64,000 bases of DNA from Rhizodiscina lignyota (GCA_010015805.1 ML978128.1:992001-1056000); one strand, 5' to 3'; positions 30,274 to 42,018 are shown, counted from the stretch's first letter. Numbers and translations: made by a program. The notes: generated by a model from the sequence alone, not told the origin.

Positions 30274-31679
30274 GTATAGCCTGTCAGGGTGTGGTAAGTG
30301 ATTAAGAGACCTTTCGGAGGCCGCTTCGAAAGACTAACTGTGGGATGGGAAGCAATAGAACGTTAAACATGAGTTATTGGAAGTTAGGAAATTGCGCGCA
30401 ACACCAAACTCCTGCGGGAAGTCTATTCCTCTTCGGAGACAGTCAAACGCGACTTCCCCTTAGTCAACTTATGCCCATCCAACATTGTGTCCCGACGGCT
30501 ACTCCTCACTCATCACGAGCGGGCAGTCATGGCGAGTGCAGATGGAACGGAACGTCTTGTCCTTATAGCATTTTGTCGTTGTTAGCCGTTCAATTCCGGG
30601 GACGAGCGCGTTTTGTCTGATATTGGTACACTAGTTGGCACCGATCCTCATCCATCATTCCGAGGCTTGGCAATTCGTAAACCACCGTCTACAGACTTGG
30701 ATCACCTCGTCCATTCAGAAATACCTGCCAATGCATTTGCGGCCTCGCTACTGCACAATTTTCAATAGCCCGGGTGGAAAATTGAACTCCTCAAAGAAGT
30801 AGCAAGCCCTTCTCCTTGATCCGGATTCTTAACCACCTCTAGCAAGAATGAAATAAGGCTAATACACGAGACATATCACAGACGAAACACAGAGACACTT
30901 CTATGTTCTCTCCTCATACGTACAATCCATCGACAATGACATCCCTTGGAAATGGTGGAATGTGATGGAACACTGTCAAGCTGTCATGGAGGAGGCTTAA
31001 AGGGGAATCAACTGCTGGGGACAGGAAATACAAAGAGAATCTGCACATCATGAGCTCTATTCCAGAGAGCATTGCTGCCAGGGAAAGATGTGGAGGACTG
31101 AGGTAAAAGAGTAGTAAATGGCAACCGCAGGGGAACAAAATGGGCGGAGTGAGCAAAAGAACACGCCCAAAAATATGACCAAGAAAGACATCAAGAACTG
31201 AGGGCTAAGATAAACTGCAGAAAGACCCTTAGCTGGTTCGGTGACTTGCGAAATGAGAAGCCAACAGCCTTCGGAATGTAGGCCCCGCCAGTCCTGCGGA
31301 TTTTTCTTATGCTTTGCATACGTTATGCATCCCCATCAACGACGTATACTTTTCCAGAAGCAAGGAGAACTCTATTGGAGCATTTCTCATTGAGCCTTGC
31401 GGCCTCCTTTCGAAAAAATGTCTCAATGCTGTAGTGAGTGTCGCATTGTGCTATCGGTAGGTCACATGAATTCTCTCGATGTTACGCGTACAGAAAGTGC
31501 AAGCTCACTGCATAGGGCCTATTCGACAAATTAGCAAAGCACACGTCGGTCTTGCAGGAAGAACGTACAGCGTACATATACTCTTAGCTATTTTGTCAGA
31601 CGTCTCTTCCTCCCCAAAAAAACCCCTTTCCGCGAATGTCGCATGTTTTGACTTTACTTATCCCAACGATCAAGAATCT

Positions 31680-32082
31680 ATGTCTGGGCCTGGGTCTGGG
31701 TCTGGGTCATCCACAATGAGAGGTTGGGACAAAGGGAAGATGACGGAGATGAGCAGAACCCCGTACAAGCATCGTCCGGAGCGGGTGCCCCAGAAGCAGG
31801 ATTCTCAGTCGAAAGGAGCTGGCGAAGACGAGACAAAGACCAAGTCGAAGCACGGCAAAAAGGGGGAGGAAAAGAAGAAGTCGGTAAGCGCAGGCTGACT
31901 CGTCGCGCGCGAGGAAGCCATCCGCTAACTAGAAGAACGGCAGGGGTGTGTTCTGCTATGATGTGGGAAGCGCAAACGAAAATTGGCGGAGAGTACTGCC
32001 CTTGGCGTTCGATGCACGGGACAAAGTGGCATTGGAAGGATTCCGTGGGACCGAAACACCAGGAAGGGCGATTTACGATTAG
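31680..32082 (+). CDS. Possible small Lys-rich hypothetical protein, 2 exons
   Basis: ATG 31680, then MSGPGSGSGSS...KKGEEKKKS. A plausible intron follows (GTAAGC..GCTAAC..AG), then a short second exon. No family recognised. Confidence 0.3.
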
Positions 32083-32499
32083 GAGTCCACTCCTATGATT
32101 TCTCCACATAAGTGTCTATATGATTTTGCGTGAGAATGCAAGCTGTAAAGGGCATCTTGAGGAGGTGGGATTCAATCCTTTGCCGCTAGTTGTGAGCCTA
32201 CTTTTACATGGAATACTTGCCGCAATGCCGTCACGCCACAGAGCGCAAGGGCCGAGCCGCGACCCCCCTCCAGTGCGGTCCGTTCCTACATGCAAGCTTA
32301 TCGTTCTAAGATCCGATACGTGAGGGACAAAGTGGTGACTATGTTTGCTACTCTTATGACTACATGCTCCGTTAAATTCACAGCTAGTGATTGGGTGGCC
32401 GGCCCTTATTATAATGAGAAATAGAGATCGCCGAGCGAGTGGAGGTCCACGGGTGTTGTAAACGGGGTGCATCACGTGATATATTCTGAGCCCAACATC

Positions 32500-33187
32500 T
32501 ATCTCGTCTCGTAAAAAGAGGGCTAGAGATATAGTATATTAAAAGATAGTCATTTTGTCTACGATAATAGCCTAATATGGAAGTAGTGATATTTCTCGAA
32601 GTTCGTGCACAATAGTCAAGTAGATTCGACGAATGTTTACATTATTACTTAGGTAGCGCGCTACAACTAGGCTTTAGTGCTGCTAACTTAGGCGAATTAC
32701 AGCTGTATAGCCAGGCAAGTATGGAAATTTCTAAGGTTGTCTTTAGGAGATAGAGGTGACGTCTTGGTACACATAGAGTGAGATTCTCGTAGATAGCCTA
32801 ATCTGGAAATGGTGATGTTTCTCGAGGTCCGTGCTCAGCACCGCCGAACGTCTCGAGAAGGCATCAGCGACTCTGGAGAAGCTTGCCGAAACCGAAGGCT
32901 ACGACGTCGATCTGGCTAATGTACGATCGCGCATCGAAACGCGTGGAAAGGGAAAAGCAAAGGCAAAGTTGGGATCCCAACCTCTCAAGGATACGCTGCG
33001 AGGCCACAATCAAGATCAATTTGTGCTACTTGAGCGACCCACTGCGGTGCAGAATGGAAGGCTGCGGTTCACAGGCGCGCAAAGGCGGCGGCAACTTGGA
33101 AGGAGAAAAGAGTGCAGTATAATGCTCGTTCAAGAACGTCTCAGCGTAAAATGCGCCAGCAGGGCGCATGAGCAAACGTTCGGCTAG
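32500..33187 (+). pseudogene. Degenerate, TpA-rich (RIP-like) coding relic with a ~44-bp imperfect direct repeat
   Basis: Copies at 32567..32610 and 32793..32836 differ mostly by transitions, including TG->TA. Reading frames are broken by stops, and only a residual ORF remains at 32831..33187. Confidence 0.45.
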
Positions 33188-33290
33188 AACAACTCAGAAC
33201 TCAGAGCGTAGGCTTGCTACAGACAGAGGATGGCGGCTGGTGTTTATTACTTCTTAATTAAGCGAGTTGAAGCTAGATAGCTAGTAAACC

Positions 33291-34086
33291 TCATAGCTTG
33301 GCTTTTGCTTCATCTGGAGGAGTGATTCTGACTGGAGTAAAAGGCACACCTAGATGGTAAAAGACCTGGTCCCAACGATCATTCCCAAACCAGTCCTTCC
33401 TTTCTCCCTCCGCATTAGTAGCCACAATCCACGGTGCGCCGAAAGCGCCAGCGCCCATCGTTTGATCGACGACTCGTTTCTTGTTCTCCGGCGTCACTGC
33501 TTTCTTCATAATCTCTTTAATCTCTTCAGGGGTGAAAATGCCCTCAAGGGCCTGGAGAACGCCCTCAGGAGTCGAGATGTTGATCCCTTTACTCCAGAAC
33601 CCTTCACTAAAAGCTGGAAACGTTTGATCGAATTTCTCAGCTGGATAGTGGTCTTTGACCCACGTCGCTACGCGAACTGGCTGTGATTACTCGTCAATTC
33701 TGCTTCAGTTTTCTCAGCCAATATAGAGAAACCCACAAAAAGAGACAGGATGGGGAAGACTTTCGGTCGCACAACTTTCAGTCCAAGAATCTCCCCAGTC
33801 ATCTGTGCATCTTGGTTTGCAAAAGCCAGCTTCGCCTTTGGAGTAGGCGTAAATGGATTCCCTACACTTTCGCGAGCGGCCCCGAGGAAGAATGGGATGA
33901 TATCAACAGAAACCCCGTAAGCATTGAGCAGTGGGCGGAAGCGGACGATATTCGTGAATCCGAACCATGAGTACGGCGATACTACACTCGAGTGGTTGGC
34001 ATGAATAGTCACTAAGTAATCATAAGAGGGGAAAACAAACCGCAGTCAACATAAATGACGAGATTCCCACCCTTTGGACGACCCAT
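33291..34086 (-). CDS. Glutathione S-transferase kappa / 2-hydroxychromene-2-carboxylate isomerase-like (DsbA fold), 3 exons, PTS1 -AKL
   Basis: ATG 34086 MGRPKGGNLVIYVDC|VSPYSW (catalytic Ser motif D.xSPYS), PFFLG, GAFGAPW and FGNDRW (kappa FGxDR). Ends DEAKAKL*. Confidence 0.88.
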
Positions 34087-34315
34087 GGTGATGTTGATTG
34101 TGCCGCAAAGGTGGGCCCCTGTTCTCCTGGGGTTTTCTCCAATTTAATACTGCGCGATTCTTCTCAACTTCGCTAGACTCGTTCGAATGCTAGCTAGTAT
34201 CGTACCACTCCAGGAGGACTGGGCCGCAAAAAATAGTATAGGGGAGTATGTCAGAGAGTGGTTATCGTTGACCTAGAACCAATGTTCGAAGGTGCGAAGC
34301 CTGGGGTAGCGCCTA

Positions 34316-34321
34316 CCGAGG
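34316..34321. promoter_or_regulatory. CCGAGG (FarA/FarB/Ctf1-type core site) in the divergent GST-kappa / CoA-ligase promoter
   Basis: Exact hexamer about midway in the ~500-bp divergent intergenic region. Short motif, so it could be chance. Confidence 0.4.
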
Positions 34322-34584
34322 TTCGCCCCACGACAAATCATTTGTAGCATTAGATAGTTATTTCTCCACTTTTATATCACTAATCTCATCTCAAGCCTTA
34401 AAGGACACCGCTAAAGAAACCACTGACAGTAAACACTGGCGTAATTTGCATCAGGAAACATGTTATATACTCGGTGGGACGATGAGTGCTTTTGGCCCTT
34501 GGCCATTCCTCACCATCCTCAGGCTCGACATGCTCTGAAGGATTGTCCTAAAGGACTTCCTCTCATCCTTTTGACTTCGATACG

Positions 34585-36351
34585 ATGACTATCACATCTG
34601 CTTATCCACCGATCACTGTCCCTCCGGTGGATCTATGGACTTTCTTATTGGAGCGAACCGATCGTGAATACTCTGATGACCATGGTAAGATTGACCTTCA
34701 AACATAATGCCTACTCACCCTCTGCAAGAATCTGACATACCTGGCAGCGATATACGTAGATATTGCCGCCCAAAAACGACTCAATTTTCGAAATATCCAT
34801 CACAGTGCAGAACAATTTGGGCGTGGGCTTCGGCAGCATTGGAATTGGCAAAAAGGAGATGTGCTGGCACTGTTCACGCCAAATTCCGCAGAGGTCGCGG
34901 CGGTCACTTTTGGTACTCTGTGGGCGGGTGGAGTTTTGTGCCCTCTGAACAACCTCTATAAAGTTGGAGAGCTGGTTTCGCAATTAAGGTCGTCCCAAGC
35001 AAAGGCTTTAGTGACTAACACTGCGTGCCTAGAAGTCGCGCGACAGGCAGCCCTGATTGCTGGATTACCTCTGGACAGAGTTCTCCTCCTGGGCGGATCA
35101 GATTCCAAAGGCCGATTTCAGCATTTCTCTAACCTGCGGAGTACATCTACTGGGATCGAGAGGGCATCAATCAATCCGGGGGAGGATTTAGCCTTCTTGG
35201 TATACTCATCTGGAACCACTGGCCTTCCAAAGGGGGTCATGTTGACTCACAGAAACATGATTGCGAACGTTATCCAGTCCAGTGCCACGGACCATGGAAT
35301 GCTCGATTTCAGGAACGACCGAAATCTTGGATTCTTACCAATGTTCCATATTTATGGTAAGTCAGACTATCAGATATTGCAGGGAGTGTTTGTTTGTCCA
35401 GGGAAAAACTAACTCTACGTTTCAGGTATTGCTGTTTTGATTCTTGGTCCAATATATCGAGGAGTTACTACGTATATCATGCAACGCTTTGATTTGAGGC
35501 AATTCTGCCACACTGTTCAGCAAGAGAAAATCACCTTCGCCTACATCGTTCCCCCAGTCGCACTCGCCTTGGCCAAACATCCTCTGGTTAACAATTTCAA
35601 CTTGAGCTCGCTCCGAATGATGCATTCATCAGCCGCACCCGTAGCCAAAGATCTGATTGAGGCAATCTATCAACGCCTCAAGGTTCCTGTTAAGCAAGGC
35701 TATGGCCTGTCCGAAGCTTCTCCGGGAGTCGCCTCTCAGAGATGGAGCGACTGGAATAATCCTATCGGCTCATGCGGGCGTTTGGTCCCCTCAATGTCGA
35801 TGAAATTTGTTGTCGATGGGCAGGAAGTACCTACTGGTGAAGAGGGAGAGATTCTGATTCAAGGACCAAATCTCTTCAAGGGTTATGACAATCCAAAAGC
35901 AACTGCGCAGTCTATCGACGCGGATGGATGGTATCGCACAGGTGATATTGGATACGTCGACAAAGAAGAAAACATATACATCACAGATCGAGTGAAGGAG
36001 TTGATCAAATACAATGGGTTTCAGGTTGCGCCGGCACAGTTAGAAGGTCTCCTGCTTGCTCATCCCGCTGTCAATGATGTGGCAGTGATTGGAGTGTACT
36101 CCGAGGAACGAGCGACAGAATTGCCCAGAGCATACGTTGTTTTAGCCAGTGGCTACAAGGCTGACGAGAAAATGGAGAAAGAGTTGAGCGACTGGTTAAA
36201 TGAGAAAGTTGCTCCATACAAACGACTTCGTGGCGGGATCCGATTCATCAACGAGATCCCAAAGAGTAGTGCCGGGAAGTTGTTGAGACGATCCCTCGTT
36301 GAACAGGCCAAAATGGAGCAAGGGCAGGAAGCTCTCAAAGCTAGACTCTGA
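34585..36351 (+). CDS. 4-coumarate-CoA-ligase-like / phenylacetyl-CoA-ligase-like AMP-binding enzyme, 3 exons, PTS1 -ARL
   Basis: ATG 34585 MTITSAYPPITVPPVDLW. AMP-binding loop YSSGTTGLPKGV, LPMFHIYG, QGYGLSE, WYRTGDIG, DRVKELIKYNGFQVAPAQLE and IPKSSAGKLLRR. Ends LKARL*. Confidence 0.92.
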
Positions 36352-36748
36352 GTTGGAAGTGATATATTGCACGACTTCAGTTCTGTGGATGAGAAAACGG
36401 TCTTTCCGTTATTACAACGGTGGACTGTTCGGCGGAAAGACAAGATATGGAACTCCAGTCATGTCACTGTGTGTGCATGCCTTAAAAACTTATATGATAA
36501 CCTTCCGATACAGAGTTATTTTGCAACACATTTAACAGTAATGCTGTCGCTGCATCATATAATGCCGCTAAAGAATTTCGAGAATCGTCTCGCGCCTCCT
36601 CCTTGCTGACGAGGAAGCAGAACTCAAGAGAAGGACCAGTGCGGCCATAAATACAGAATAAGACGAGTATCTCGGGGTTCTGAAAATAGTTATAAGATTA
36701 TCGTACTCCGTACTTTTCTGTCCAATACATTCGACCATTCGTGTGCAT

Positions 36749-37537
36749 TCACAATTTACTAAACATTGTCTCCTTCTGCGCCCTCGCATCCAACTCCTGT
36801 GTCCAGGCACTTCGAGGCTGAATGTGAAGAAACCAGTACGTCTGAGCCAGATCGGCGGGCTGGACGAGATATGAATCAATGTCTTCCAGCTTGTCCTGCG
36901 CGCCTTCGCGTTGCCACTGTCTCCGGCGCACGCCGCCAATCAATTTACCGTCTACAGGGCCGTCCACAATGATATGTGCCGCATGGATACCCTTGGGCTG
37001 GTATTCTCGAGTGATAATCTGACATAATGACCGTAGCCCGAACTTGCCGGGCGAGAAACTCGCAAGCCCGGGCATCCCTCGTAGGGCTCCGGTCGCGCCA
37101 GTGAAGAGAATCGTGCCCTTCTCCGCAGCCAGCATGTCCGGGAGGACGCACTTTGTTGACCAAAAGGCACCGAAGAGATTGATTTTTGTGAAGTTCTCGA
37201 ATTCCTCGGTGGTCGTGTCCAAGATTGACCTGCCGTTGACGCGGCGAGCGCCGGCGTTGTAGACTAAAACCTGTACAGGGCCTAGGTCACTGCGGATTTT
37301 CTTGAAGCTCGAATTCACAGAGTCCTCAATACGGAGGTCTGTCAGGTAGTATTGTGCTGTCCCTTTGCCATAGTCCGCGTCGATGCCTTGGACCATTGTC
37401 TGCAGTTTGTCTTCCGTCCGGGCGAGCAAGGCGACAACGAAGCCTTCTGCCGTGAATCGTCGTGCAACTGCTTCTCCAATTCCCGGCCCAGCACCGACGA
37501 GTGCAATGACTGGCTTGTTTGCCGAATTGAGAGACAT
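36749..37537 (-). CDS. Short-chain dehydrogenase/reductase, atypical FxxxK subgroup, intronless, PTS1 -SKL
   Basis: VGAGPGIG Rossmann motif, VYNAG, FTGATG, FSPGKFGLRSL (Phe in place of the catalytic Tyr), GIHAAHIIVDG and WTQELD. Ends MFSKL*. Confidence 0.9.
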   Translation of the reverse strand: MSLNSANKPVIALVGAGPGIGEAVARRFTAEGFVVALLARTEDKLQTMVQGIDADYGKGTAQYYLTDLRIEDSVNSSFKKIRSDLGPVQVLVYNAGARRVNGRSILDTTTEEFENFTKINLFGAFWSTKCVLPDMLAAEKGTILFTGATGALRGMPGLASFSPGKFGLRSLCQIITREYQPKGIHAAHIIVDGPVDGKLIGGVRRRQWQREGAQDKLEDIDSYLVQPADLAQTYWFLHIQPRSAWTQELDARAQKETMFSKL

Positions 37538-37775
37538 GTTGGAGAAACGGGTTTAAAAAAGCAGCTAATGTTAACTGTATTGAATTCTAAGGCGGTGATG
37601 AATCAATCTCTCCACTAATCGAACGGTCGTGAAAAATCTTGTATGCCTTGCATCAATGTGAATTGTCGGTCAGGAACCTAGATTTAGTTTATACTCTCGC
37701 AGCTCTATGTAGTTGCTAGGTCGTTGATTGACGTGCTTTACAGCGAATAGTAATCGGTGGGGGGACGAGATTGCG

Positions 37776-37781
37776 CCTCGG
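37776..37781. promoter_or_regulatory. CCTCGG (FarA/FarB/Ctf1-type core site) ~240 bp upstream of the SDR start
   Basis: Exact hexamer in the SDR upstream region. Short motif, so it could be chance. Confidence 0.4.
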
Positions 37782-38472: not shown

Positions 38473-41400
38473 TCATCCTTGACTGCCCTCGTGGGTCCTG
38501 TCTTTGCCAAAGCTTAGTCTAGCTACTCTCTCCGCAACTCCTTCTTCTTCATTTTGCCACTCCCTGCTTGAGCCCCTGCTCTTCTTCGGCGAGCCTGGCG
38601 GCGAAGTAATTTCTTCGGGGCTCTTTCTGAGCCCAACATCGCTCGTCGAAGCGACCGACTCAGCAGGCGTCGTCGTTGACGGCTCACTCTGCGTCTTCCC
38701 CAGCTCTTCCAGACTATCAGGCTCGTGCGTTAGATTATCAGCAATCTGCGGCTCCTTAATCGCGGAAGGTGACGACGGTTCAGCATCAGCAGTCTGCTTC
38801 GCACGCTTGTCCTTCTTCGGCGGAGGAGATAGGAGTCGCTGAAATGCGTTCGATCGCCCATCTTCCTCGTCATCATCCTCGTCGTCAGACCTAAAATATG
38901 CCTCATCCCAGCTTCCACTGTCGTCCCGGGCCATCCTCTTACTCTCCCCACTGCCTGCTTCCTTCAACGGCTTCAGTTCATCAGTCGCCTCCCTCATCTC
39001 ACTCGCGGTTCTTCTCGGCGCGTCGCTATCCTCCTGCCCCTTAACATGCTCCCCGTGATCCCCAATCGGCTTATCGGCATCCTTCGCCCTGTCCCTCGCA
39101 GGCTCATCCTCATCGCGGGTACGCGCAGAATACGTGTCGCCAAAGTGCGTGTCGCACAGGTGCTTGACGACCGGCCAGCCATACGCGTTGGCAAACATTC
39201 GGCGCACGACTATGTTGTTGTGAGCATCTGGCTCGAGGCGCACGAGTACCTTGCGCCACGTGAGATCGCGATGATAGGCACGCGCAATCTTCTCTTCCAC
39301 TCGCATGCCACCGATGTCTGCTGAAGAGCCATTGCTGACGCTTTGGTCCGAGAAAGTAGATGAAGTGCCGGAGTCTGGTCCCCAGGTACTTCTGTCAGTA
39401 GACAAAGTGCGGCCCATCCTAGACGGACGTTTCGTTGGTGGAGGAGGAATATCTTCGGGGTGATAGACACGATCGTGCCATATCGTGCGGACGCGGCTTG
39501 CAGGATCGTTGATCCAAGCTCCGGAAGGGATTGGTGGGGCGAGCAAATCACCAGCAGACTCGAAAATAGATGTTTTCGGGGGTGCCTGCATGTTCGTCGG
39601 ATCTTCTAGAATTGAGTCGCCACGTGTTGCAGGAGGACGTTTGTGAACATGGGTTTGTGCACCATGCTCACCGTCGTCTCGATTAGGAATATGATGCTCG
39701 CTAGAAGGCCGTCGTGAGGAGCCACTGTCACTGCCGCTGCGTTCCCATCCAGGAGGTTTCAGTGTCTGACTTCTTTTGAACACCTTGGAATCTTTCTTTG
39801 AAGGCAGCTTTGGTGATTTTGGAGCACGTGGGGAGGACGGTGACGGTCGGAAAAAGTTGAGGAATGTATCAATTGGGCCTGTTGCTTCGCCATTCGTATT
39901 AGTATCAATGTGCAGCTGCCGACTTGACTCATCAAACGACTGAGTTCTGCGGGCTGGTCCAGTAGTCTGAGTTTCATCGTCGACATTCGTTGTGTCTTCG
40001 GCAGGTTGTGGGACCTCTGAGCCAATATGATTAGCTTGCGGAGGTGAAGAGATGTCATCATCCTCATCACCACTGATAGCTGATGCTGTTGGATGAGGAG
40101 ATGAGTTCTGTCCTGTCATTTCCGCCCATCCCCAGCTCGCCATAGTACCAATTAAACCGTTCTCTCTTCTTGCCTTGTCCACCTTTCCAAGACCTCTCCA
40201 GTCGAGGAAGAGAAGGCAGCTGGTTCTTAGAGGGACAATTCCATCGTTGACTACGTTTGAATAAACTGTGCGGTTTCTGAAACGCCGCAACACTTGGTGA
40301 GCAGGGCCGGTGGGCAGGATTCTGAGGAGCGGCTTTGAGCCTGGATCTCCTTGCGATTTCTCTTTCTGGCCCACTCCGAGTCCGCCAACCATGGCACTCC
40401 ACCCGCTCCTGGTTAAGGTTGCCGGCCGCCATGTCAAACCCAAATCTTGACCAGTTCTACCCACAAGACCAAAGTCCAACGCAAATTTGACATACATCGG
40501 GTTCTCGTTGCTAAGTCCGAGGAATGGCGATGCAAGCGCGACAAAGTTGATAGGCTTTATGCGCTCGAAGAAGGTTGGAGAGTGTTTCTGGATATAAGCA
40601 ATCGCATACAGCTGCACGAGTCCGCCCAATGAGTGGCCAACGAAACTGATGCTAGTGTATTTGTATGCTCGTTTCTCCATCTTCTCATCAGGCCTCTGAA
40701 TGCTGCTGTGATTATGAGCCGGCACGCCCTCTTGAGAATCTTTCGACGATTGAGACGAGAAGGCACTGGAGATCTTTCCGGACATTGACTTCTTTACAGG
40801 TAGAACTGGCTGGTCCGGATAAGTCATCTCAAGGATACTTTTTGCCATGCGTTTCCCGAGATATTGGATACCCTTCTCGGTACGAGTCGCATTGCCGTTA
40901 AACCCACGAACGATGATCTGCTCTTCGTCATCATCCTCTTGATCTTGCTTGAGTTGATCTTGCCCTCCGCTCAAAGGAGCAGTTGATGCTTCTTCTGTTG
41001 AATTATGCTTGTCAGACTGAGGAGCTTCAGGGGCATGATCCTCGCAATCAACAGCATCTGAGGGGATTGGTTCGGCTCTCTTCCTCTTCCTCCTGTTCTC
41101 TCGCGCTTGCCTAACTGTAGCATCGATGCTCTCCTTTAGGTAGAGCATGTCCGCCCCCAAATTGCTATGCAAACCATGGGTAAGTACAACAAGATGAATC
41201 TTTTGCTGTTTCTGCACTCGCTTTGTATCTCCCCGTTGACTCCGTTGGCGTGTAAATGAATTCCGTGATTGTCGTCGCCTGCTCGGCGGTCGTTCGTCCC
41301 ATTCCGGAAGCGCCGGCTTATTCCACAAGCTTGCGGTATCATCTACGACCATCTTGATCGCCTTGGAGTATATTCCCTTTGACTGCGCAGAATGATGCCC

Positions 41401-42018
41401 ATCCTTCCCATGCGCCTTCTGCTGATGGTCCACAATCTGGCCCGGTTCTGGCCTCACCCTGCCGGCCACAGCAGCCCAGCCCAGATCCAAACTCTTCTCA
41501 TCGCGGCTAATGAGCATTTCGTAACTTGTTGAAGCAGACAGGGAAAAGATGATCTGCGACGCAATCTCCAATATCCACGTCACGCTTCTACTGCCATCAC
41601 CGCTGTCTGGTGTGCTTGAGCTTGCAAACGACTCTGCTGTCTCCCGGATGTCCTCTGGTACTGGTAGTTTCGCAATCCATTCGCCGCCTGGCTTGAGATA
41701 CGGCTCGAATTGTGGTACGCCGACCCGCCGCTGGTCCTTGGTCTTGTGGTTTGGGTCGAAAGTCGATGGGTACGCTGCGGCATATATGTTGTATGGGCCA
41801 TGAAGATAGGCAGCTCGTAGCGGAATCGCGGCATGATTCTTAATCTTGACGTAGAGGGCGTGTGGGGAGGGGAGGATGCGGTCGTCGGAAGGGGTGTAAG
41901 TGAGGGTATACCTTTTCTATATTAGCTTAAAGTACATTATCATGTAGTAGTTCCTTAAATCGACATACCGAATAACCTCTCCAACCTTGACGGTGCCTTG
42001 CTGGTGAACTAGGAGCAT
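38473..42018 (-). CDS. Putative lipase/serine esterase (DUF676, ROG1-like), 2 exons
   Basis: ATG 42018 MLLVHQQGTVKVGEVIR|YTLTY..LRAAYLHGPY. Motifs HLVVLTHGLHSN, nucleophile elbow GHSLGG, YSNVVNDGIVPLRTS and DAHNNIVVRR. Confidence 0.88.

Follow-up and report, generated by a model that had tools for sequence, protein, structure and literature searches.

Three adjacent genes of the fungus Rhizodiscina lignyota (Dothideomycetes, Aulographales), encoding a kappa-class glutathione S-transferase (GST), an acyl-coenzyme A (CoA) ligase and a short-chain dehydrogenase/reductase (SDR) that lacks the catalytic tyrosine, appear to form a metabolic gene cluster conserved within the Pezizomycotina. The products of this cluster would be imported into peroxisomes through C-terminal type 1 peroxisomal targeting signals (PTS1), be expressed under a regulator of the Far/CTF1 type and act on a CoA-activated unsaturated acid, a reading to which a probability of roughly 0.6 is assigned. 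The genes occupy positions 33291-37537 of a 64,000-nucleotide stretch of the genome assembly (GCA_010015805.1, ML978128.1:992001-1056000), hereafter the window, which had previously been interpreted from its sequence by itself (the sequence-only reading). A literature search, with subscription journals outside its scope, found no paper describing the three-gene cluster, and within that literature the trio would be a previously undescribed fungal metabolic gene cluster of the Far regulon. It is invisible to standard cluster finders because it has no backbone synthase.

Structure of the three-gene locus

The sequence-only reading had placed three enzyme genes side by side, with products ending in AKL, ARL and SKL, and all three were recovered at the same positions, as follows.

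33291-33680, minus strand: kappa-class GST exon 3, C-terminus ...DEAKAKL, stop codon at 33291-33293 (from reading the sequence and Pfam DSBA)
33737-33981, minus strand: kappa-class GST exon 2, which starts with the SPYSW active-site motif (from reading and alignment with human GSTK1)
34041-34086, minus strand: kappa-class GST exon 1, ATG at 34086-34084 (from reading and splicing)
34087-34584, no strand: shared intergenic region of the head-to-head GST and ligase genes, 498 bp from start to start (from reading)
34316-34321, no strand: CCGAGG (CCTCGG on the minus strand), core site of the Far/CTF1 type (from motif search)
34585-34684, plus strand: acyl-CoA ligase exon 1 (from reading and splicing)
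34748-35356, plus strand: acyl-CoA ligase exon 2, AMP-binding domain with the SSGTTGLPKG motif (from reading and Pfam)
35426-36351, plus strand: acyl-CoA ligase exon 3, remainder of AMP-binding and AMP-binding_C, ending KARL and then stop (from reading and Pfam)
36749-37537, minus strand: Tyr-less SDR, single exon, 262 amino acids, T149/F161/K165, ending FSKL (from reading, Pfam and alignment)
37776-37781, no strand: CCTCGG, at -244 relative to the SDR ATG (from motif search)

The GST gene (introns of 59 and 56 nt) and the ligase gene (introns of 63 and 69 nt) have GT...AG introns and encode products of 226 and 544 amino acids, respectively, and the SDR gene is intronless. Spliced translations of the first two were identical at every residue to the deposited R. 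lignyota proteins P0397 (GST) and P0121 (ligase). Two promoter features that had been proposed were also present: the divergent GST/ligase promoter of about 500 bp with CCGAGG at 34316, and a CCTCGG at 37776 in the SDR promoter, 244 bp 5' of the SDR start. None of the three proteins matched any NCBIfam family above its cut-off.

Conservation of linkage across fungi

Metagenome contigs were scanned with an alignment of SDR orthologues, yielding 54 fungal loci that collapsed into 43 groups at 97% SDR nucleotide identity. In 25 of these dereplicated groups the SDR had the ligase, the GST or both as neighbours; these comprise the SDR with full ligase and GST (9/43), a variant trio described below (3/43), a ligase remnant and GST (2/43), ligase only, mostly with the contig ending there (5/43), and GST only (6/43). 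Flanks in a further 13 groups were shorter than 4 kb and too short to judge, and two groups had neither partner on the one long flank available. In an all-versus-all comparison of open reading frames (ORFs) across the 54 loci the SDR was found in 54, the GST family in 22 and the ligase in 21, followed by the next family in 3, and the other ORFs of the window (15-55 kb) had no match in any SDR-anchored locus. As the trio recurs and the flanking ORFs are unmatched, the block is conserved and its surroundings are not. Orientation is also retained, with GST and ligase head-to-head in 10/10 loci carrying both genes intact, and in two loci (L002 and L040) the GST-ligase pair as a whole is turned round with respect to the SDR.

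NCBI locus tags gave the same picture. The trio is consecutively numbered in Boeremia exigua (OPT61_g1803/1804/1805) and Rhinocladiella mackenziei (Z518_10308/10309/10310), and pairs are consecutive in Exophiala sideris (PV11_10161/10162), Friedmanniomyces endolithicus (LTR12_012523/012524), Cadophora sp. M221 (IFR05_011057/011058) and Fonsecaea erecta (AYL99_04670/04671), so that the genomes with consecutive tags span three classes, namely Dothideomycetes, Eurotiomycetes and Leotiomycetes. The locus therefore has the properties by which a metabolic gene cluster is defined, i.e. non-homologous genes that are neighbours and remain linked beyond the reach of local synteny. The co-localised trio put forward in the sequence-only reading was thus found again in other fungi, in the 25 of 43 groups and the tagged genomes of three classes, and the contrary possibility, that its orthologues are unlinked in all other fungi, is contradicted by both the metagenomic loci and the locus tags.

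The variant trio (L012:10975-13805, also L013, L017 and L018) carries an orthologous SDR of about 80% identity and, on the strand opposite to it, a DsbA-like gene with 25-30% identity to the window GST and a product ending SLL, together with an intronless ligase of 49-51% identity ending SKL. These partners belong to the same families and are not orthologous to the window GST and ligase. In the two loci with a ligase remnant (L001:1244-1946 and L004:2717-3352, between SDR and GST), 37-43% of the ligase length is left, and the sequence looks like a decayed gene.

No fourth conserved cluster gene was found among the fungal loci, the next family being nitronate monooxygenase-like and confined to 3 of them. 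A gene of this family (PF03060) stands beside the trio at L029:3686-4675, L040:15535-16317 and L001:3789-4419 and may be an occasional fourth member of the cluster. Loci with the SDR by itself (L003, L007, L009 and L016) had no alternative partner in common. Paraphoma chrysanthemicola apparently has two GST-ligase pairs on different contigs (P0415/P0139 and P0422/P0142), which would mean a duplicated pair.

Peroxisomal targeting signals

The three products end in AKL, ARL and SKL, each conforming to the PTS1 consensus (S/A)(K/R)(L/M), and the signal proposed for each of them turned out to be conserved among the respective orthologues. For the SDR, 118 of the 120 best homologues (77-96% identity) end in [ST][KRH][LMIV], with SKL in 76. 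Among 49 full-length GST homologues, 37 end in [SA][KR][LM], 11 in near variants (AQL, SHL) and 1 in neither. The ligase was assessed in putative orthologues at least 57% identical to the part encoded by exon 3, after dropping rows of at least 700 amino acids (fused insect or plant proteins); 46 of 47 end in x[KR][LM] and 31 of 47 in [SA][KR][LM]. C-terminal ends read from the metagenomic loci were consistent with these orthologue counts. The conserved tripeptides suggest that all three products are imported into peroxisomes through PTS1.

Where the fungal SDRs carry PTS1, the bacterial Tyr-less SDRs (P0250-P0390) end in P-x-x-E-[KS]-[FW], and a further eukaryotic member of the subfamily, P0244 from the transcriptome of the amoebozoan Dermamoeba algensis, ends SSL.

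A conserved promoter motif

All 6-, 7- and 8-mers in the promoter regions of the fungal loci were counted de novo, with shuffled sequence as the null (95th percentile of its best k-mer). Where the ligase is intact, CCGAGG led the 6-mers of the GST-ligase intergenic regions, occurring in 10/10 (null 95th percentile 8), with CCTCGGC as the top 7-mer and AGCCGAGG as the top 8-mer; the site is missing from both (2/2) intergenic regions beside a decayed ligase, in L001 and L004. In the 600 bp 5' of the SDR the top 6-mer was CCTCGG, present in 31 of 32 dereplicated loci (null 95th percentile 19). After mutually alignable promoters were merged, CCTCGG remained in 25/26 SDR promoters and 9/9 GST-ligase promoters, against a background of 156/578 (27%) of 600-bp segments of natural flanking DNA from the same loci.

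CCTCGG is bound by Fusarium CTF1 alpha and beta and by Aspergillus FarA and FarB, which regulate fatty-acid and cutinase genes, according to the available part of PMC5068947, and FarA is also required for peroxisomal CoA-dependent degradation of hydroxycinnamates in Aspergillus niger, as described in the portion of PMC10512302 at hand. The genes of the cluster thus share with the Far/CTF1 regulon a CCTCGG core site in their 5' regions, and the regulator acting on both promoters is probably a Zn2Cys6 protein of the FarA/FarB/CTF1 type. The footprinting also carries a lesson of method, in that comparison across species rescued a 6-bp motif that is statistically meaningless in one genome.

Three further features of these promoters were observed. 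A longer conserved word containing CCTCGG, TAATCAGACCTCGG, occurs in the SDR promoters of L009, L031, L035, L036, L042 and L047, and a tandem CCTCGGAACCTCGG occurs in those of three related loci (L019, L027 and L050). Words of the ACTAATC type rank second in k-mer conservation in both promoter sets.

Family assignment of the three enzymes

The SDR belongs to Pfam adh_short (E 1e-35) and has both the Rossmann motif GAGPGIG and the NAG motif (YNAGA). The catalytic Ser-Tyr-Lys of classical SDRs is absent, the window protein having T149, F161 and K165 (FSPGK); alignment with the classical SDR 4fn4 sets F161 and K165 against its Tyr and Lys, and T149 against its Ser. The best solved relative is 3h7a (E 1e-41), a structural-genomics SDR entry without assigned function that has the same F...K feature, and a protein atlas lookup returned only generic SDR names. 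An exhaustive search gave 150 cluster representatives of the subfamily at E <1e-30, of which 124 full-length sequences were aligned with the window SDR. Across these 125 sequences the Tyr position is occupied by F in 89, L in 23, H in 5 and Y in 2, the Ser is replaced by Thr in 107, and Arg40, right after strand 2, is invariant (125/125). This is therefore a large bacterial and eukaryotic SDR subfamily, with T-F-K for S-Y-K and a solved structure in 3h7a, to which a function has yet to be assigned.

In SDRs, NADP(H) binding is dictated by a basic residue after strand 2, and enoyl-thioester reductases of the superfamily require no Tyr as acid/base (both from the accessible part of PMC2792337). 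Because the subfamily combines the Arg after strand 2 with the lack of Tyr tolerated in those reductases, it is most simply read, by analogy, as consisting of NADPH-dependent reductases of a thioester-conjugated double bond. Human PECR offers a parallel, being a peroxisomal SDR in which Phe takes the place of the active-site Tyr, as in the window SDR with F161 and an NADP-type Arg; however, there is no close relationship to PECR or DECR, and the window SDR is nearer to 3h7a. The SDR is also unusually conserved, with 77-96% identity over its 120 best matches from Dothideomycetes, Eurotiomycetes, Sordariomycetes and Leotiomycetes, well above the GST (about 50-73%) and the ligase (about 57-73%).

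The GST was assigned to the DsbA-like thioredoxin-fold family DSBA (PF01323) with 29.6 bits from exon 3 by itself (cut-off 25.6), and PF01323 is also precomputed for P0397. Its residues 9-210 align with residues 8-213 of human GSTK1 (1yzx) at E 7.6e-14, with VSPYSWFGF of the window opposite LSPYSWLGF, so that a Ser-type SPYSW stands in place of CxxC; the motif is kept in 7/7 orthologues inspected. Its Ser we take to be the catalytic residue of kappa-class GSTs. Human GSTK1 (PDB 1yzx, 3rpn) shares with the fungal protein an equal length of 226 amino acids, an end-to-end alignment, SPYSW and the DsbA-like fold family, whereas sequence identity is about 25-30%. The fungal gene, unlike that of animal GSTK1, has the genes of a CoA ligase and an SDR as conserved cluster partners, a context that to our knowledge has no animal counterpart. 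Similarity to the solved putative 2-hydroxychromene-2-carboxylate (HCCA) isomerase 3fz5 is weaker (E 6.7e-4); bacterial HCCA isomerases and Ser-type DsbA-like proteins share the Pfam family, but the fungal GST matches kappa GSTs better and no naphthalene-pathway genes lie nearby. GSTK1 is peroxisomal in mammals, a likeness to the PTS1-tagged fungal GST, and the kappa class is described in the available text of PMC10565873 as the only known glutathione-dependent enzyme of mammalian peroxisomes, with its physiological function unresolved.

The ligase has AMP-binding and AMP-binding_C domains (E 2.1e-40, 1.6e-32 and 1.7e-17), and its translation contains the core motifs of the ANL superfamily, namely SSGTTGLPKG, YRTGD and the C-terminal catalytic Lys. 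Its best PDB matches are tobacco 4CL2 (5bsm) and beetle luciferases, and the deposited name '4-coumarate-CoA ligase 2' rests on similarity alone. The hydroxycinnamate pathway of A. niger (hcsA, foxA, katA) resembles the cluster in beginning, within the peroxisome, with a CoA synthase like 4-coumarate-CoA ligase (4CL), in having putative FarA CCTCGG sites in its promoters and in the neighbouring gene numbers of hcsA and katA (from the part of PMC10512302 that covers these genes), and differs in having neither a GST nor a Tyr-less SDR. Orthology of the cluster ligase to HcsA is unlikely, because no Aspergillus name occurs among its 120 best matches.

Bacterial counterparts

A locus search with 12 members of the SDR subfamily gave 77 bacterial loci, taken from the best 80 matches to one alphaproteobacterial query; neighbouring ORFs were clustered and their representatives scanned with Pfam. 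The neighbours included a canonical GST (28/77 loci), a DSBA-like protein (25/77), a family III CoA-transferase (20/77), an AMP-binding ligase (19/77), an HxlR regulator (17/77), an acyl-CoA dehydrogenase (13/77), a nitronate-monooxygenase-like protein (10/77, e.g. L060:191-1198) and a thiolase (9/77). A GST or DSBA gene lay within 300 bp of the SDR in 27/77 loci and anywhere in the locus in 44/77, and a DSBA gene directly adjoined the SDR in 11, including loci of Gammaproteobacteria, a myxobacterium, Rhizomicrobium and Hyphomicrobiales. The bacterial DSBA neighbours are of the Ser type, with FDFGSPNAY and not CxxC, so that Ser-Pro replaces CxxC in these proteins as it does in the VSPYSW of the fungal GST. 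The sequence-only reading had stated that SDRs with the FxxxK feature and HCCA-isomerase-like proteins are neighbours in bacteria, which the 25 loci with DSBA neighbours corroborate.

A described parallel is isoGHIJ of isoprene degradation, where glutathione transferases accompany an SDR-type dehydrogenase and a family III CoA-transferase; the enzymes handle a glutathionyl acid, and the CoA-transferase is predicted to form a glutathionyl-acyl-CoA (both from the available part of PMC10057887). The same family composition of SDR, GST and CoA-transferase III is found in bacterial loci L055 and L056. The differences are that IsoH is an NAD-reducing alcohol dehydrogenase and that no monooxygenase genes stand beside the bacterial loci examined here.

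Proposed function and alternative explanations

Under the preferred reading of a conserved peroxisomal cluster, the ligase would form the CoA thioester of an unsaturated carboxylic acid that resembles a fatty acid or a phenylpropanoid. The kappa GST, activating glutathione through the Ser of SPYSW, would isomerise, conjugate or de-conjugate the electrophilic alpha,beta-unsaturated acyl-CoA, and the Tyr-less SDR would use NADPH to reduce the carbon-carbon double bond conjugated to the thioester, leaving a product available to ordinary beta-oxidation. Both the substrate and this order of steps are inferred. A Zn2Cys6 protein like FarA, FarB or CTF1 would control expression from the bidirectional GST-ligase promoter and from the SDR promoter, and the cluster would therefore belong to the regulon inducible by fatty acids and cutin monomers, to which it would add a catabolic or auxiliary module. 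The same families recur both in the variant cluster of fungi and in bacteria, which suggests that the three genes act in one pathway.

Several observations weigh against this reading. In three of the 43 fungal groups neither partner was found within 10 kb on both sides of the SDR, and loci in which the SDR stands alone still carry CCTCGG upstream of it; the SDR therefore also works alone, perhaps in some general capacity. Two loci kept the GST and the SDR although their ligase has decayed, and in L026 the GST comes after the SDR without the ligase between them, so the three genes are not strictly interdependent. PECR and DECR were not among the 60 best PDB matches of the SDR, and the proposed reductase chemistry is therefore a matter of analogy and not of membership. 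CCTCGG occurs 32 times in the window against 32.75 expected from shuffled sequence, so that the two sites of the window prove nothing by themselves, a statistic that is uninformative rather than negative; the motif that the sequence-only reading had noted in both promoters is supported by its phylogenetic conservation there (25/26 and 9/9, against 27%). In bacteria, 26 of the 77 loci had neither a glutathione-type nor a CoA-activating neighbour, the DSBA neighbours have only weak similarity to the fungal GST (about 21-30% identity), and a tblastn search of the bacterial loci with the fungal GST found no neighbour at E 1e-4. The bacterial loci are moreover mostly from Alphaproteobacteria, many of them from Bradyrhizobium or Afipia, and are therefore not independent.

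Some of these observations would also fit a trio of functionally independent peroxisomal helpers that are merely co-regulated and co-located, their clustering resulting from Far-type control and the bidirectional promoter. The GST would then serve generally in antioxidant defence or thiol repair, in line with proposals for mammalian GSTK1, and the ligase and the SDR would be a general fatty-acyl-CoA synthetase and a general NADPH reductase, respectively. The retention of CCTCGG where the SDR stands alone and of the neighbours where the ligase has decayed agree with this explanation, as does the widespread paralogous tier of ligases (53-58% identity), which ends AKL in 57/66 and indicates that peroxisomal 4CL-like ligases are common; the role of mammalian GSTK1 is likewise discussed mostly as redox-related in the available part of PMC10565873. 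However, in the variant cluster the same families are linked once more although its DsbA-like protein (25-30%) and ligase (49-51%) are not orthologous to those of the window, the block keeps together while moving among unrelated genomic contexts, and bacteria, having neither peroxisomes nor Far regulators, pair the Tyr-less SDR with a GST or Ser-type DsbA-like gene and often with CoA-activating enzymes. A triad of reductase, glutathione enzyme and CoA activation in organisms that are free of peroxisomes argues for shared chemistry and against mere shared regulation, and independent helpers are accordingly regarded as a rather unlikely explanation, albeit the most serious of the alternatives.

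Biosynthesis is improbable as the role of the trio, i.e. the making or tailoring of a peroxisome-derived signalling lipid or toxin side chain. Such pathways exist, jasmonate-type oxylipin shortening and the peroxisomal steps of AK-toxin type being comparisons, and peroxisomal 4CL-like ligases participate in them. An apparently patchy distribution, neither Aspergillus nor Penicillium being named in the 120 best ligase matches or the 114 GST matches, would be in keeping with this role, but the trio is not repeatedly accompanied by a backbone synthase, a tailoring P450, a transporter or a pathway-specific regulator, and the bacterial counterparts neighbour acyl-CoA dehydrogenases and thiolases, which are catabolic genes of the beta-oxidation kind. 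The conserved promoter motif is also that of a fatty-acid catabolic regulon, as given in the available part of PMC5068947. A coincidence of adjacency with three PTS1-like ends, or an artefact of gene prediction, might be entertained given that such tripeptides are short and that the motif count of the window equals chance expectation; it is rendered extremely improbable by the agreement of the GST and ligase models with deposited proteins, by the renewed linkage in 25 of 43 dereplicated groups and in named genomes of three classes, and by the conservation of the tripeptides in orthologues.

A broader version of the preferred reading is offered tentatively, as a possibility with the odds somewhat against it: the fungal cluster could represent an ancient module shared by Proteobacteria and fungi, consisting of a Tyr-less SDR of the NADPH type, a Ser-type glutathione enzyme of the DsbA fold (kappa GST or HCCA isomerase type) and a CoA activator, that carries out an undescribed conversion of an unsaturated acid dependent on glutathione and CoA and that in fungi became peroxisomal and controlled by Far/CTF1. 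If true, this module would for the first time place kappa-class GSTs, the peroxisomal GSTK1 of mammals among them, in a physiological pathway. Together, the fungal cluster and the bacterial triad turn the function of kappa GSTs into a concrete and testable substrate hunt.

Genomic surroundings in the window

The sequence-only reading had described the region around the trio as accessory-looking, a description that did not hold. The flanking genes encode the second-largest subunit of RNA polymerase, an NIF phosphatase, a beta-lactamase-family protein, a large DUF676 esterase and a biotin-protein ligase, together with TANGO2, an HVA22/Yop1-type protein, Mgm101, GDT1 and a PUF protein, and GC content is flat across the window (0.47-0.58). 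Since the flanks consist of housekeeping genes, among them those for the RNA polymerase subunit, biotin-protein ligase, Mgm101, GDT1, TANGO2 and HVA22, the trio lies in core chromosome and not in an accessory region.

Directly adjoining the GST gene, about 3 kb (30334-33290) contain no ORF of at least 150 amino acids. On the other side, a frame lying 935 bp upstream of the SDR is not kept beside the trio in other loci; it is stop-free over 1147 amino acids (38476-41916, minus strand), with long stretches of low complexity and a serine-esterase domain of the DUF676 family (GHSLGG).

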